64,000 bases of DNA from assembly GCA_045606105.1 (NCBI GenBank), contig JAZURI010000002.1, positions 224,001 to 288,000 of the forward strand, written 5' to 3'. The translations under genes were made by a program, and so were the position numbers. Of this stretch, positions 30,700 through 36,702 are shown piece after piece. Positions within the stretch are counted from its first letter, which is position 1, and the number at the start of each line of letters is the position of its first letter. The stretch comes from Spirochaetia bacterium (GTDB lineage: Bacteria; Spirochaetota; Spirochaetia; CADAEX01). The notes under the pieces are model-generated. The model saw only the letters and a list, made by a program, of their open reading frames with translations. It was not told the DNA's origin and made no database searches.

Positions 30700-31122
30700 T
30701 TATTTAATAAATTCCGGAAGTTCGAGAATGATGTTCCTGAGTTTCTTGTTCCTGACCATTTCCGATGCTTCCTGAACCGTATGCCACTCCCTGAGACGGA
30801 GCATGTCTTCAGGCCATCTGTCCAGCACTTCGGTTACCTCCATGGCAAACACCTTGATCCTGCATTTGCCTCCCCATTTGTGCATGGAATACTTTCCGAT
30901 GGAGGGCTTCCTGATAAGACCTTTTATACCGGCCTCCTCATATGCCTCCTTCAGTGCGGAATCGGAGGAAGAATACTGAGAATCGACAAGTCCCTTGGGA
31001 ATGCTCCACTTGTCCCTTTTCTTGTTTGTAATGATGAGAATCTCTAAGTTGTCTCCCTTTTTCCTGTAGGGCAGAACGCCGGACTGGAGATAGAGGGGTG
31101 CGATTTCAGCCTGTTCTTTCAT
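30700..31122 (-). CDS. NUDIX hydrolase
   Basis: WSIPKG...SALKEAYEEAG Nudix box. Confidence 0.9.
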   Translation of the reverse strand: MKEQAEIAPLYLQSGVLPYRKKGDNLEILIITNKKRDKWSIPKGLVDSQYSSSDSALKEAYEEAGIKGLIRKPSIGKYSMHKWGGKCRIKVFAMEVTEVLDRWPEDMLRLREWHTVQEASEMVRNKKLRNIILELPEFIK

Positions 31123-31233: not shown

Positions 31234-31428
31234 TCAGAGAGCTGCAACCTGTTCCTTCATTTTTCCATGAGCAACAGCAGCCTTGCAGTCTTTACAGATT
31301 TTTACTTTCTTTGAATTAGCTTCAAATTCATAAACTGTCTTGATTCCTGTTCTCTTGCAGATAGGACATTCACCTCTTCCATTGTTTGGAAGCTCTCTCA
31401 TTCCTGTTCCTCTGTGTGCTTTTGACAT
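31234..31428 (-). CDS. 64-aa basic Zn-ribbon protein (two CxxC motifs)
   Basis: CPIC and CKDC; Lys/Arg-rich; AAGGAG RBS; TAGACA-18-TAGAAT promoter; own terminator. Confidence 0.8.
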   Translation of the reverse strand: MSKAHRGTGMRELPNNGRGECPICKRTGIKTVYEFEANSKKVKICKDCKAAVAHGKMKEQVAAL

Positions 31429-31543: not shown

Positions 31544-33934
31544 ATGAATTCCAACAAGGGACGATTCTGGATAATTTTCTTCATAACTGCAGCCTTTCTC
31601 TGCGCCGTCATCTGCGGCGGTCTTCTGGGAACTCTCTATGCCCTGAACAGGAATGTCCACAACATAGGTCTCATTTCGGAATTCAAGCCTGCCATTCCCT
31701 CCACCCTCCTGGATGTGAACGGAGAGGTCATCACCGAATTCTTCTCTGACGAAAAAAGGGACATCATTCCGGTGGACGAGCTTCCCAAAGAGCTTATCTA
31801 CTCCATCATCACCAGGGAGGACAAGGATTTCTTCAATCACAAGGGCTTCAGCTTCAAGGGAACCTTCAGGGCTGCATTCAATATTCTTGCGGGACGCTAT
31901 GTTTCGGGAGGAAGCACCATAACCCAGCAGGTGGCGGGAACCAACTATTCGGACAGATCGGAAAAAACCATAAAAAGAAAGCTTGTGGAGCTCTGGTGGG
32001 CCTTCCAGCTTGAAGAGAACAAGACCAAGAACGAAATCCTGGAAATGTATCTCAACGAATCCTATTTCGGTCACAACACCTACGGCGTGGAGGCGGCATC
32101 CCAGTTCTATTTCAAGCATCCTGCCAGAAACCTGACACTGGCGGAATCTGCCATCCTGGTTATCCAGCTGGCAAACCCGGCCCGTTATTCCCCTATCAGG
32201 AACCCTAACCGTGCAAAGATAATCCAGCAGGAGGTACTGAACCAGGTAGTGGCTTCGGAATATGCCACCAGGGAGGAAGCAGATCTCTCCTTCGAGCAGT
32301 ACTGGAACAATATCTATGACCCTCTCAGATCCACCAGCGAGACCGCATATCTGGTAAAGAACGACAAGGCCCCTTACTTCAGCGAATATGTAAGACAGGA
32401 GCTGGAGGATATGCTTTACGGAAAGATGGACTATCTCAGGGACGGCCTGGTAATCCATTCCACCCTGGACCTGAACTACCAGCGGGTTGCCGACAAGCAC
32501 ATGCAGGAAGGAATCTATACCTTCAACAGGAAATATCAGGAAAGCAGCGGCAGCAGGATAAGTTATGTGGAAAAGGAATTCGTACCGGTAATCGAGGCAC
32601 TTTCTCTCCTTTACGACATTGATTCCATCAGGACCTCAGGGGTTCAGCAGAAAAAATATGCAGACAAGATATTCAAGGAGGACATAACTCCTATTCTCAA
32701 TACGGTTTCACTTCTTTTCGGAAGCGAGGAGCTGAACTTCATCTCCAATATCTCCTACTCCAGGAAATCGGCGGAACAGCACAAGACCACCATCGAGGGA
32801 GCCCTGGTAATGCTGGAGAACGAGACAGGACACATCAAGGCCATGGTGGGAGGCAGCGATTTCGAGACAAAGAAGCTGAACAGGGCAACCCAGTCCAAGG
32901 TAATGCCGGGTTCCTCCTTCAAGCCTCTTTACTATTCCGCAGCCATCTCCTCCGGCAAGGTAACACCGTCCACCATGCTCTACGACAAGCCTATGGTTTT
33001 CTGGAATGATGACGGAACCCCATATACACCTCTCAACTTCCTGGGAGAGTGGCAGGGAACGGTAACCATAAGACAGGCCCTTTCCCAGTCCATGAATGTA
33101 CCATCCATACAGGTACTGGATATGGTAGGCTTTGACGCAGCCATAAACAGGGCATCCAGGCTTCTGGGTATAACAGATCCGGCCCAGATAGAGAGGACCT
33201 TCCCGAGAAAATATCCTCTGGGACTGGGTATCATAGGTATTGCTCCGATTCAGATGGCCAAGGCATTCTCCACTTTTGCCAACCAGGGCAAGGAGGTTAC
33301 CCCTATCGGAATCAGATATATCGAGGACAGGAACGGCAGGATTCTTTTCGAGCCGGAAAGGGATCTCCGCATGGCACAGAAGGAGATGGGAGACCGTATG
33401 CAGATTCTCTCTCCTCAGGCAGCCTATGTGATGGTAGACCTGCTGAAGACCACCGTACAGGAGGGGACCCTGGCCAACAGAAGAAGGGCCGTGGGAGGCT
33501 TCCCTATGCCGTTTGCCGGAAAGACGGGAACCACACAGAACTGGTCCGATGCCTGGACCGTGGGCTTCTCCCCTTACCTGACCACTGCAGTATGGTTCGG
33601 CTTCGACATGCCGGGAAATTCACTGGGACTCAACCAGACAGGTGCCACCGCCGCAGGACCGGTATGGGCAAAGGTCATGAAGGAGGTTCACCTCAACAAT
33701 GCAAAGAATCTCCCACCTAAGGATTTTGACAAACCATCCTCCGGTGTCATCGAGGCCAATGTATGCTCAAAGTCGGGACAGATTCCTACAGCAGACTGCA
33801 GGGACGGAATCAGAAAGGAAATTTTTATCTCAGGTACCGAGCCTAAGAGCTTCTGTACATACCACAGGTTCGAAAAAGAGAGAAACTCCGAGCTGCTGGA
33901 GCGTCTTGAAAGAAACCTGAGAGATAATTTTTGA
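31544..33934 (+). CDS. Class A penicillin-binding protein (PBP1A family)
   Basis: Transglycosylase EDKDF and GGSTITQQ motifs; transpeptidase PGSSFKP, SMN and GKTGT motifs. Confidence 0.95.
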   Translation: MNSNKGRFWIIFFITAAFLCAVICGGLLGTLYALNRNVHNIGLISEFKPAIPSTLLDVNGEVITEFFSDEKRDIIPVDELPKELIYSIITREDKDFFNHKGFSFKGTFRAAFNILAGRYVSGGSTITQQVAGTNYSDRSEKTIKRKLVELWWAFQLEENKTKNEILEMYLNESYFGHNTYGVEAASQFYFKHPARNLTLAESAILVIQLANPARYSPIRNPNRAKIIQQEVLNQVVASEYATREEADLSFEQYWNNIYDPLRSTSETAYLVKNDKAPYFSEYVRQELEDMLYGKMDYLRDGLVIHSTLDLNYQRVADKHMQEGIYTFNRKYQESSGSRISYVEKEFVPVIEALSLLYDIDSIRTSGVQQKKYADKIFKEDITPILNTVSLLFGSEELNFISNISYSRKSAEQHKTTIEGALVMLENETGHIKAMVGGSDFETKKLNRATQSKVMPGSSFKPLYYSAAISSGKVTPSTMLYDKPMVFWNDDGTPYTPLNFLGEWQGTVTIRQALSQSMNVPSIQVLDMVGFDAAINRASRLLGITDPAQIERTFPRKYPLGLGIIGIAPIQMAKAFSTFANQGKEVTPIGIRYIEDRNGRILFEPERDLRMAQKEMGDRMQILSPQAAYVMVDLLKTTVQEGTLANRRRAVGGFPMPFAGKTGTTQNWSDAWTVGFSPYLTTAVWFGFDMPGNSLGLNQTGATAAGPVWAKVMKEVHLNNAKNLPPKDFDKPSSGVIEANVCSKSGQIPTADCRDGIRKEIFISGTEPKSFCTYHRFEKERNSELLERLERNLRDNF

Positions 33935-34001
33935 TTTTCCGCTGGAAAATCAGGCAATCTGCAGTTATAATATAATTACAGAAAATATAAGGGGGTAAGC
34001 T

Positions 34002-34391
34002 GTGCAGGTCAGAATCAAAGATATAGTTGTCAAAGAAAGAGCCCGCGGAAATGAGGGCGATCTGGAATCTCTGATGAAAAGTATGGAAAAACACGGGCAG
34101 CTTAACCCGATTATCATCAACTCAAAGAAACAGCTTATAGCAGGCTACAGAAGGCTTACAGCCGCAAAGAAGCTGGGCTGGGAGAAGATCAATGCCACCA
34201 TGCTGGAAATCACCGACAAGGCCGATATGCTGGCAATAGAAATCGATGAGAACGTACAGAGGCTTGAGTTTGAATCACTGGACCTGGAAAAAGCCTATAA
34301 CAAGCTGGAAAAACTGAGAAAGAAAAATATCTTTGTCCGGTTCTGGCATTGGCTGAAAAATCTTTTTTCAGGAAAATTAAAAAAAAATTAA
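34002..34391 (+). CDS. Short ParB N-terminal (ParB/Srx fold) protein with C-terminal amphipathic helix
   Basis: GQLNPIII, LIAGYRRLTA and EIDENVQR motifs; 129 aa; ends NIFVRFWHWLKNLFSGKLKKN; GTG start after AAGGGGG. Confidence 0.85.
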   Translation: MQVRIKDIVVKERARGNEGDLESLMKSMEKHGQLNPIIINSKKQLIAGYRRLTAAKKLGWEKINATMLEITDKADMLAIEIDENVQRLEFESLDLEKAYNKLEKLRKKNIFVRFWHWLKNLFSGKLKKN

Positions 34392-34399
34392 AAAAAAAT

Positions 34400-34428
34400 T
34401 TGACAACATAGAATTTCTGTTGTAGAAT
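34400..34428 (+). promoter_or_regulatory. Near-consensus sigma70 promoter with no credible downstream CDS
   Basis: TTGACA (34400-34405)-17-TAGAAT (34423-34428), with an A-tract upstream. Confidence 0.75.
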
Positions 34429-34434
34429 CAAATT

Positions 34435-34564
34435 GTCAATATACTATGTTTTGACATTCATTTTCATTGGTAAATCTGAATCTCTCAGGTTCAGGTTTGG
34501 TACAGCTTTCTGTGGCACATCAGTACCCCTTATACTATTCATAGAGAGCTGTATCTTTTTTTTT
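34435..34564 (+). ncRNA. Candidate small RNA of about 130 nt with three hairpins and a terminal U-tract
   Basis: Promoter upstream; hairpins at 34434-34456, 34472-34498 and 34499-34555 (25-nt loop); T9 at 34556-34564. Confidence 0.6.
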
Positions 34565-34602
34565 GCCCGGATGCTTTCAACGGAAATTACAGAAAAAAAC
34601 TA

Positions 34603-35583
34603 TCAGGTACGGGGAGCTTTTCTTTCATCTATGGCCTTGTTGTCCTTGAATACGGAAAAATAGACCACAGCGGTTCCTGACTTGCTGCTGTATGCCTTAC
34701 CTATTTCTGTTCCCGGAGAGACCTTATCTCCCTTCTTCACATAGGTATCGTTGTTACCGCCGTAGATATAGACATAGCCGCTTTCGTTCTCCACGAAAAC
34801 CATTCTGCCCATGTTGCGGTAATCGCACTCATGAATTACCTTTCCGCTTGATACGGAATGGATTATGGAATCATTGCTGGATGAGATCTTTGTTCCCTGG
34901 AACTTTCCGGTAATCCTGGATCTGGTTCCCTCTGCAGGCCAGAAGAACGGAGCACTCTCGTCAATCCTGGATACTGTCTCGGAGGCAGGACGGGCTGTTT
35001 CCCTTGTGGCCACGGTTACTATTTCAGAGCCTGTCGGAATACGGAGCTTCATGCCTGCAAAAAGCTTTTCATTGGCACCCAGGCTGTTGGCTTCCCTGAG
35101 ATCGTCAAGGGCTACATCATGCTCCCTGGCTATTCCCCACAGAGTATCCCCTTTTTTTACTGTATAGGTGGTTGAATAGGATTGCTTCCTGTTACCGGCA
35201 GGAACAGTCAGTCTTGTCCCCTTGGCTACCTTGTTGGGATTCTTTATATTGTTGAGCCTTACTATTTCACTTACGGTGGTTCCGTGATTGTATGCGATAT
35301 CTCCCAGTGTATCCCCCGCTTTTACGGTATAGGTGGTTGTCTTTACCGCAGGAGCCGGAGTCTTCTTTACGCTCTTGCTTTCAGGAATGATGATCCTGGT
35401 TCCCTTGTAGATCTTGTTGGGATTCTTCAGGGTATTTGCCCGGAGAAGGTCATCCACGGTCACGCCGAATTTCCTGGCAACGGAGGTAAGGCTGTCACCG
35501 CTTTTCATGTAATATATCTTGTCTGCCATTGCAGAGCTTACAGTAAAAATAAAAAGGAAAAAGAATATAAGTTTTCTACGCAT
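34603..35583 (-). CDS. Exported protein with three LysM domains and a degenerate M23 peptidase domain
   Basis: Signal peptide; three YxVKxGD(S/T)L-type repeats; C-terminal FWPAEG...GRMVFVEN...VKKGDKVSPGTEIG. Confidence 0.88.
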   Translation of the reverse strand: MRRKLIFFFLFIFTVSSAMADKIYYMKSGDSLTSVARKFGVTVDDLLRANTLKNPNKIYKGTRIIIPESKSVKKTPAPAVKTTTYTVKAGDTLGDIAYNHGTTVSEIVRLNNIKNPNKVAKGTRLTVPAGNRKQSYSTTYTVKKGDTLWGIAREHDVALDDLREANSLGANEKLFAGMKLRIPTGSEIVTVATRETARPASETVSRIDESAPFFWPAEGTRSRITGKFQGTKISSSNDSIIHSVSSGKVIHECDYRNMGRMVFVENESGYVYIYGGNNDTYVKKGDKVSPGTEIGKAYSSKSGTAVVYFSVFKDNKAIDERKAPRT

Positions 35584-35637: not shown

Positions 35638-35666
35638 TTGACAACAAGGTTATGTTTGTTTATAAT
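35638..35666 (+). promoter_or_regulatory. Perfect-consensus sigma70 promoter of glpX
   Basis: TTGACA (35638-35643)-17-TATAAT (35661-35666). Confidence 0.8.
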
Positions 35667-35700
35667 AGGATAAAATGTAAGCTGATAAGGAGTGATTCAG

Positions 35701-36702
35701 ATGAGTAAGATGAACAGGGAATTCTCCCTGGAGATAGCTAGAATTACAGAGGAAGCTGCTCTTGCAAGTGCCCGCTGGTGGGGAAAGGGGGATAAGATTG
35801 CTGCCGACGGCGCAGCAACCGAAGCAATGAGAGCTATGTTTGATACCGTTCACATTCAGGGAACCGTAGTTATCGGTGAAGGTGAAATGGATGAAGCCCC
35901 TATGCTTTATATCGGTGAAAAAGTAGGATCCTGGGAAGAGGATGATTTCCCTGTAGATATTGCAGTGGACCCTCTTGAAGGAACAAACCTTGTGGCAAAA
36001 GGAATGCCGGGAGCAATCACAACTTTGGCTATGGCACCAAAGGGAACTCTTCTTTACGCTCCTGATATGTATATGGATAAAATTGCAGCCGGCCCGAAAT
36101 GCAAAGGTAAGATCCACCTCGATGCTTCCGTTACAGAGAATATCAAGGCATGTGCGGCAGCACTTGACAAGAAGGTAAGCGATATCACAGTCGTAGTCCT
36201 GGACAGGGAAAGACACAAGAAGATCATCAAGGAAGTCAGGGAATGCGGAGCAAGAATCAAGCTTATTACCGACGGCGATGTTTCCCCTGCAGTTTCAGCA
36301 GGCTTCCCGGGAAGCGGTATTGACATGATGATCGGAATCGGAGGAGCTCCGGAGGGAGTTCTGGCAGCTGCGGCCCTCAAGGCAATCGGCGGAGAATTCC
36401 AGGGAAGACTCTATCCTATGAACGACAAGGAAAAGGAAAGAGCAACAAGAATGCTGGGAGGAGATCCTTTCAGACTCCTTACAATCGACGATATCATCAA
36501 GACCGATGATGTAATGTTCGCCGCAACCGGTGTTACAGACGGTGAGCTTCTCAGCGGTGTAAGATTTATCGGAAACGATATTGCGGAAACCAAGACCATC
36601 ACACTCAGAGGTTCCACAGGAACCATCAGATTCATCGAAGCACAGCACAGGCTGGATCTCAAGAGTGATGATATCAAAAAGATTATCTTACAGAAAAACT
36701 GA
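35701..36702 (+). CDS. glpX: Class II fructose-1,6-bisphosphatase
   Basis: VVIGEGEMDEAPMLYIGE, DIAVDPLEGT, DGDV, GIGGAPEGV, ATGVTDG. Confidence 0.96.
   Translation: MSKMNREFSLEIARITEEAALASARWWGKGDKIAADGAATEAMRAMFDTVHIQGTVVIGEGEMDEAPMLYIGEKVGSWEEDDFPVDIAVDPLEGTNLVAKGMPGAITTLAMAPKGTLLYAPDMYMDKIAAGPKCKGKIHLDASVTENIKACAAALDKKVSDITVVVLDRERHKKIIKEVRECGARIKLITDGDVSPAVSAGFPGSGIDMMIGIGGAPEGVLAAAALKAIGGEFQGRLYPMNDKEKERATRMLGGDPFRLLTIDDIIKTDDVMFAATGVTDGELLSGVRFIGNDIAETKTITLRGSTGTIRFIEAQHRLDLKSDDIKKIILQKN

Follow-up and report, generated by a model that had tools for sequence, protein, structure and literature searches.

A candidate small RNA with a C-rich terminator loop beside a mini-ParB gene of an uncultured spirochaete

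The anti-Shine-Dalgarno mechanism of small RNAs (sRNAs) with C-rich motifs is known mainly from Firmicutes and Actinobacteria. Another arrangement is that of IstR-1/tisB and OhsC/shoB, in which a trans-encoded type I antitoxin RNA adjoins its target gene. To our knowledge, hardly any regulatory RNA has been described from the uncultured spirochaetes of the gut. The C-rich-loop sRNAs of Gram-positive bacteria include RsaE/RoxS, other Rsa RNAs and hairpins of RNAIII; the Rsa RNAs of Staphylococcus carry a UCCC motif that binds the Shine-Dalgarno sequence and prevents formation of the initiation complex, and anti-Shine-Dalgarno sRNAs have as their hallmark an apical loop in which CCCC is fully unpaired (PMC2790875). 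The 6C sRNA of Mycobacterium is described as being of the same C-rich-loop kind (PMC6486639).

The window analysed here, a stretch of 64,000 nucleotides from an uncultured member of the Spirochaetia, contains an intergenic element for which an earlier note had proposed an orphan small RNA that represses the adjacent gene for a ParB-like protein. The explanation that accounts best for the whole of the data, and that is put forward tentatively, is that the element is a real and young sRNA whose loop would pair with G-rich Shine-Dalgarno sequences, with the adjacent parB gene as a lineage-specific target. Its parts are of unequal strength and they are considered separately in the following sections.

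The element and its conservation

The candidate gene is preceded by a sigma-70 type promoter on the + strand, TTGACA (34400-34405)-17-TAGAAT (34423-34428), that reaches 11/12 in the promoter scan. By itself it would prove little, because 80 sites scoring at least 11/12 are found in the genome under study (G000; 1.46 Mb, 99% complete). Directly 5' of the -35 box there are two A9 tracts (34363-34398, + strand), a region that is A-rich also in the nearest species (G005) and that may be an UP element, which it resembles. TTGACA or its reverse complement TGTCAA occurs three times between 34399 and 34459 of the window (at 34400 and 34453 on the + strand and at 34434 as reverse complement), all kept in G005; these copies create an inverted repeat, TTGACAA-N26-TTGTCAA, that spans the promoter and the start of the sRNA and that could be an operator for a regulator, and they also make the first hairpin of the RNA.

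The predicted sRNA (34435-34564, + strand, about 130 nt) folds at -39.7 kcal/mol against a shuffle mean of -20.8 (z = -5.99; 0/200 shuffles as stable), and its structure is strand-specific, the same interval of the - strand folding at only -22.9 kcal/mol and a folded stretch of 251 nt of that strand giving z = -0.74. Three hairpins are predicted, all on the + strand. Hairpin 1 (34435-34455) forms the 5' end and is kept in G005 but is not recognisable in the third species that carries the element (G001); hairpin 2 (34472-34498) can be followed by comparison with G005; and hairpin 3 (34499-34555), whose stem is kept in G001, is the terminator stem, in which 34499-34514 pairs with 34540-34555 (-22.6 kcal/mol for the hairpin) and encloses a 25-nt loop (34515-34539, GCACATCAGTACCCCTTATACTATT). 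The top of this loop is a C-rich heptaloop, CCCCUUA (34526-34532, + strand), with an unpaired probability of 0.97-1.0, which lies within a core CAGURCCCCUUA (34521-34532). A T9 tract (34556-34564, + strand) follows the stem directly, as in intrinsic terminators, the length of the loop being atypical for these; the terminator scanner allows loops of 3-8 nt only, and for this reason hairpin 3 is absent from its calls.

The earlier note had read most of this from the sequence, and the promoter at 34400-34428, the three hairpins ending in T9 and the last stem with its 25-nt loop at 34499-34514/34540-34555 are all where it placed them. It had also described the 130 nt as devoid of a credible ORF, which agrees with the finding that no reading frame over the sRNA is open in all three carrier species (G000, G005 and G001), and the reading as a small ORF or toxin gene was rejected. 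The Rfam search for which it had called gave no + strand match over 34435-34564 with the covariance models of release 15, nor any match over the homologues of G005 or G001; between 33000 and 36000 nine matches appear at E <= 10, each far below the gathering score of its family.

Comparison between species gives the main evidence that the RNA is under selection. The element shares 84% identity with that of G005 (blastn), and 72 nt (34497-34568), comprising hairpin 3 with its full loop, the T-run and 4 nt past it, are identical in both species, whereas 19/40 (47%) of the four-fold degenerate sites of parB differ. At this neutral rate, 72 unchanged sites would have p < 1e-15, and even at 80% identity p would be about 1e-7 (our own arithmetic). 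Hairpin 2 has accumulated eight stem substitutions with respect to G005 and still has 11/11 standard pairs; six of the 11 pairs are changed, two on both sides and four on one side via G-U, and these G-U pairs work on the + strand only. A strain variant found in three public runs, A34493G, likewise converts a U-A pair of hairpin 2 to U-G. G001 retains the stem of hairpin 3 despite two two-sided and three one-sided changes, with two more pairs resolved by a bulge, and of the loop only the core CAGURCCCCUUA is kept, which is thus identical in 3/3 species. The hexamers and the spacing of the sRNA promoter are identical in G005; at the homologous place G001 has TTGACT-17-TATTTT, which scores 9/12 and overlaps the parB stop codon.

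Taken together, the promoter, the strand-specific fold, the compensatory changes, the conservation of the last hairpin and the lack of an ORF indicate that the RNA is real and under selection, and very probably the element is a functional RNA. The claim of an orphan small RNA is therefore well supported at the level of sequence, also by the lack of an Rfam match. That the region is a non-functional intergenic remnant, shaped by chance, is scarcely credible: its narrow distribution (3/61 genomes) and the 80 promoter-like sites of this quality would suit such a remnant, but not the 72 identical nucleotides next to 47% four-fold divergence, nor compensatory changes that work on the + strand only. 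In the preferred explanation, the conserved working part of the sRNA would be the C-rich apical loop on the terminator hairpin.

Public RNA libraries cover the region in a form that gives neither strand, nor ends, nor level, since the four public runs that contain it do so only as contigs; two metatranscriptome runs are found to include it. In one RNA library a contig runs unbroken from beyond 33000 through the upstream PBP1A gene and parB to 34568, where it stops 4 nt after T9, and the next contig begins at 34721. In the second RNA run, a 151-nt contig (34460-34611) bridges the terminator. These contigs are a weak hint, compatible with termination at T9 and also with read-through from parB. 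The unbroken contig from PBP1A through parB that stops at 34568, as well as the weak promoter of G001 (9/12), would fit an element that is not independent but closes the PBP1A/mini-ParB transcript as its structured 3' UTR with terminator, which would insulate the convergent genes. This origin is distinctly improbable, since G000 and G005 both have, at exactly 130 nt upstream, an 11/12 promoter preceded by A-tracts, termination does not call for an invariant 25-nt loop, and six relatives with abutting genes do without a terminator at this place.

Neighbouring genes and distribution

The gene upstream of the mini-ParB gene (31544-33934) codes for a PBP1A with transglycosylase and transpeptidase domains, as identified by profile search. 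The mini-ParB gene itself (34002-34391, + strand) codes for a protein of 129 aa that consists of the ParB N-terminal domain only (Pfam PF02195, E 8.1e-11; TIGR00180, 59.8 bits). It has its own promoter-like site, TGGAAA-17-TATAAT (33943-33971, + strand; 10/12 in the promoter scan), at a position where G001 has TTGGCA-17-TATAAT (11/12), and because of this site the mRNA leader is predicted to be short, about 24 nt from near 33978, so that pairing with the sRNA would span most of it. Small full-length homologues of mini-ParB (E <= 5e-21) are present in 50/61 genomes of the class, and about 47 genomes, including six of the nine of the genus, have mini-ParB without the sRNA. In 18/18 loci for which upstream sequence is available the gene lies directly 3' of a long ORF, which in the window is PBP1A. 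A separate full-length ParB exists besides these homologues, for example at G000:C10:101188-101451.

The second neighbour of the sRNA in 3/3 carrier species is a convergent gene for a LysM/M23 peptidase (34603-35583, - strand; LysM 1.2e-45, Peptidase_M23 6.7e-15). Between 34360 and 34440 of the window, the - strand has T9-AA-T9 after a weak hairpin (TTGACAA...TTGTCAA or CAACA...TGTTG); were M23 transcripts to end there, the whole of the sRNA gene would face their 3' UTR in antisense.

Further observations concern the surroundings of the locus and the genome at large. Upstream of PBP1A, a 64-aa ORF on the - strand (31234-31428 of the window) contains two CxxC pairs (CPIC...CKDC) and resembles a small zinc-ribbon protein; it sits between a 140-aa ORF (30700-31122) and PBP1A. 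Beyond the M23 gene, a perfect sigma-70 promoter, TTGACA-17-TATAAT (12/12), at 35638-35666 of the window stands just 5' of a 336-aa ORF (35692-36702), which, by its sequence, we take to be a GlpX-type fructose-1,6-bisphosphatase. Elsewhere in the genome, a 149-aa protein (G000:C1:75321-75773, locus L229) matches the GemA family of bacteriophage Mu (E 4.3e-20), a sign that this genome, though small, may harbour a Mu-like prophage.

The sRNA element occurs in three of the nine genomes of the genus (G000, G005 and G001), always between the mini-ParB and the M23 gene. Homologues were searched for by blastn over 60 relatives, which returned G005 only, and with a covariance model derived from the three copies (61, then 20 genomes), and neither search found the element in the other 52 genomes examined; the best remaining covariance-model match, in G016 (31 bits), proved to be an ordinary terminator without the loop. 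A pattern scan of the genomes of GTDB species gave 10 loci, two of them identical to the G001 and G005 loci, and the remaining eight, in unrelated phyla, were taken as chance. In JGI metagenomes a stricter pattern gave 0 matches and a scan for the mini-ParB protein gave 37 loci, all at or below 45% identity and thus without close relatives.

In the other six members of the genus (G002, G008, G006, G004, G007 and G003; loci L033-L038) the 3' ends of parB and of the M23 gene abut or overlap (around locus positions 1900-1980), so that the element would have no space there. These six have a longer mini-ParB frame (151-169 codons open) and no intergenic terminator. In a tree of PBP1A and ParB the three carriers group together (support 83/88) and the six non-carriers form a clade (support 100/99); since both groups separate in this way, a single gain or a single loss suffices. 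As part of the overall explanation, and with the same reserve, the sRNA gene may be evolutionarily young and limited to a three-species clade of this uncultured genus.

Pairing of the loop with translation start regions

The proposed mechanism starts with an sRNA that would be transcribed from its own sigma-70 type promoter and that would end at the intrinsic terminator. Its C-rich loop would then base-pair, independently of a chaperone, with Shine-Dalgarno sequences of the UAAGGGG type, and this pairing would block binding of the 30S subunit and so lower translation. On balance, anti-Shine-Dalgarno pairing via the C-rich loop is slightly more likely than not as the way of action. In G000 and G005 the adjacent mini-ParB mRNA is among the best matches, with a 9-bp seed on the Shine-Dalgarno sequence and 5 bp on the GTG, and within this mechanism mini-ParB would be a probable lineage-specific target and not the reason for the existence of the sRNA.

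The translation start region of mini-ParB (33986-34005, + strand, TATAAGGGGGTAAGCTGTGC) comprises the Shine-Dalgarno sequence AAGGGGG and the GTG at 34002, and the earlier note had reported that the loop matches it at 15 of 20 positions, which is correct. Nine contiguous pairs (CCCCUUAUA with UAUAAGGGG) lie over the Shine-Dalgarno sequence, five more (GCACA with UGUGC) lie over the GTG and one is isolated. The duplex has an energy of -21.7 kcal/mol, which 0/300 shuffled parB start regions reach. Opening would cost 2.1 kcal/mol for the 20-nt stretch of the sRNA and 4.5 for the mRNA site; the 9-bp seed alone contributes -12.0 kcal/mol, and 0.5 kcal/mol is needed to open the 9-nt seed site, so that by these models the pairing is physically plausible. 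Duplex folding of the whole sRNA was set aside, as it gave unrealistic long-range structures.

When the start regions of G000 (1390, from crude gene calls and crude start sites) are ranked for pairing with the loop, that of parB comes seventh. In a genome-wide duplex scan seeded on 6-mers the parB site is number 48 of 9596 seeded sites, the top two being the antisense of the sRNA gene itself. TATAAGGGG has five copies on both strands of the genome, one of which is again this antisense, and that of parB is alone in lying at a start. The match is unusual, yet other sites rival it and its choice was made post hoc. Six other start regions pair with the loop as well as parB or better, namely those of a polyprenyl synthetase, a citrate transporter, a Nuo51-like protein, a CBS/ATPase protein, a biotin ligase and a 101-aa ORF; since their functions are unrelated, no coherent regulon emerges. 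The ranking of start regions thus places parB near the top without singling it out.

A conserved target was sought in the whole genome of G001, with the same crude gene calls, by ranking 979 orthologue pairs (of 985 reciprocal best hits) jointly, each species with its own loop, and no clearly conserved one appeared. Four of the 979 pairs attained a joint p at or below about 2e-4, when about two are estimated by chance, and none of the four pairs convincingly at homologous positions, with the possible exception of ribosomal protein S5. The joint rank of parB, 25/979, comes from G000 alone (G001 p = 0.54). Shine-Dalgarno sequences of the TAAGGGG type precede 11/1392 genes, and AAGGGG is kept in four orthologue pairs (ribosomal protein L2, an FMN_bind protein, one protein without family and Cpn60), which is explained by shared ancestry and was discarded as a sign of targeting. 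A search of the three genomes for a conserved 12-mer target site gave two perfect non-self sites, neither of them at a gene start, and not orthologous to each other.

That no conserved mRNA target was found is one of the points that would fit a real RNA whose loop has another role, either in binding a protein or within a cis-antisense RNA to the 3' end of the convergent M23/LysM peptidase transcript, which may extend across this region. Such a role would also explain the constant position between parB and the M23 gene, and on the - strand the T-runs at 34363-34398 are the first to offer a good terminator beyond the M23 stop, which makes an antisense overlap possible. Against it, anti-Shine-Dalgarno sRNAs are marked by just such an unpaired CCCC in the apical loop (PMC2790875), and a cis-antisense role leaves unexplained that the loop is conserved more than the stem. 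On this evidence a role other than anti-Shine-Dalgarno pairing is rather unlikely.

The behaviour of the parB match across species bears on the proposed repression of ParB in both directions. In G005 it is kept (-21.1 kcal/mol; 4/300 shuffles as good) despite one extra G and diverged upstream sequence, while in G001, with the RNA at the same place, the loop and its own parB start give only -5.2 kcal/mol and 299/300 shuffles do as well. The complementarity claimed by the earlier note is thus conserved in one relative and missing in the other. In addition, a strain variant seen in one RNA-library contig, G33991A, reduces the seed to six contiguous pairs, or to nine with a bulge, the loop being unchanged. 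Repression of the adjacent gene therefore stays plausible as to its complementarity, kept in G005, and is weakened by its absence in G001, by the six rival start regions and by G33991A. As a true direct target in G000 and G005, mini-ParB is rather doubtful.

A stronger version, in which the RNA is a dedicated repressor of its neighbour, forming a trans-encoded type I-like pair with parB as the sole or main target, is improbable. It would account for the adjacency, for a 15/20 match that spans both the Shine-Dalgarno sequence and the start codon, for the rank of 7/1390, for the persistence of the match in G005 amid diverged surroundings and for a parB Shine-Dalgarno sequence derived towards the conserved core of the loop. 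However, complementarity is lacking in G001, where both the RNA and its position are kept; mini-ParB without the RNA in 6/9 genomes of the genus and across the class implies that there is no toxin in need of an antidote; and the strain variant G33991A weakens the seed. From these comparisons, mini-ParB would be at most a lineage-specific candidate target and not a dedicated, antitoxin-like partner.

Across the genus, the AAGGGGG Shine-Dalgarno sequence of parB is derived, the other seven members having one of the GGAG type. This allows a further reading, that of a newly born pair, in which parB of G000 and G005 would have swapped the ancestral GGAG-type Shine-Dalgarno sequence for UAUAAGGGGG, matching a pre-existing loop core, while the 5' side of the loop would match the ancestral start context GCUGUGC. 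Taken as a whole this reading is unlikely. If it were true, a protein with only the ParB N-domain, encoded in a cell-wall locus (PBP1A, M23 peptidase), would recently have come under sRNA control, the first example among ParB-fold genes, and one that would show an sRNA in the act of capturing its neighbour as a target; among the papers listed in the literature search none dealt with control of a ParB-fold gene by an sRNA, which is weak evidence of absence.

Comparison with known systems

For the preferred explanation, a young sRNA with a C-rich loop, the consequences depend on which part holds. Its anti-Shine-Dalgarno action would extend the mechanism to the Spirochaetia; as a young sRNA (three species) beside a possibly fresh target, it would be a compact case for the origin of an sRNA-target pair; and it would offer a way into the function of mini-ParB, which is widely conserved and follows PBP1A. 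If the link to ParB fails, it would be just another lineage-specific sRNA candidate.

With regard to intrinsic terminators, the element shares a stem of 16-17 pairs that contains G+C and runs into U9, and it differs from them (loops of 3-8 nt) in having a 25-nt loop of invariant sequence. It is similar to IstR-1/tisB and OhsC/shoB in being a putative, separately transcribed sRNA that neighbours a gene to whose translation start region it has short and imperfect complementarity. Unlike in these pairs, the neighbour is a 129-aa core protein with the ParB N-domain and not a small hydrophobic toxin. Type I targets are small toxic peptides, usually hydrophobic, whose control rests on the RNA antidote, and the ParB_N protein is present in 50/61 genomes, the RNA in 3/61; complementarity, which type I pairs keep wherever they occur, is present in G005 and not in G001. 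The layout of a type I antitoxin, to which the earlier note had likened the locus, is therefore contradicted, mini-ParB being a core gene that does without this RNA in about 47 other genomes and whose complementarity is absent from G001.

The other likeness drawn there, to sRNAs with C-rich loops, holds by analogy, given the unpaired and conserved CCCCUUA in 3/3 species. As in the Rsa RNAs (PMC2790875), a hairpin at the 5' end and a linker rich in A/U precede a C-rich motif that is conserved and unpaired, and a classical terminator closes the element. Pairing with the Shine-Dalgarno sequence is predicted to block initiation, as in the C-rich-loop class, which needs no Hfq (PMC2790875). The Hfq and CsrA families have no match in the G000 genome (99% complete), and their absence fits a class that is independent of chaperones (PMC2790875). 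In contrast to RsaE and 6C, which have several C-rich loops, the element has one, and, unlike in the rest of the class, the terminator hairpin itself bears this loop, a spirochaete is the host and the distribution is limited to three species. With the Rsa and 6C families it has no relationship in sequence or in Rfam. It does carry the C-rich motif (UCCC/CCCC) of the class in an unpaired and conserved region, as CCCCUUA, and it is best classified, from its sequence, as a putative new sRNA family, narrow in distribution, of the known anti-Shine-Dalgarno kind with a C-rich loop.
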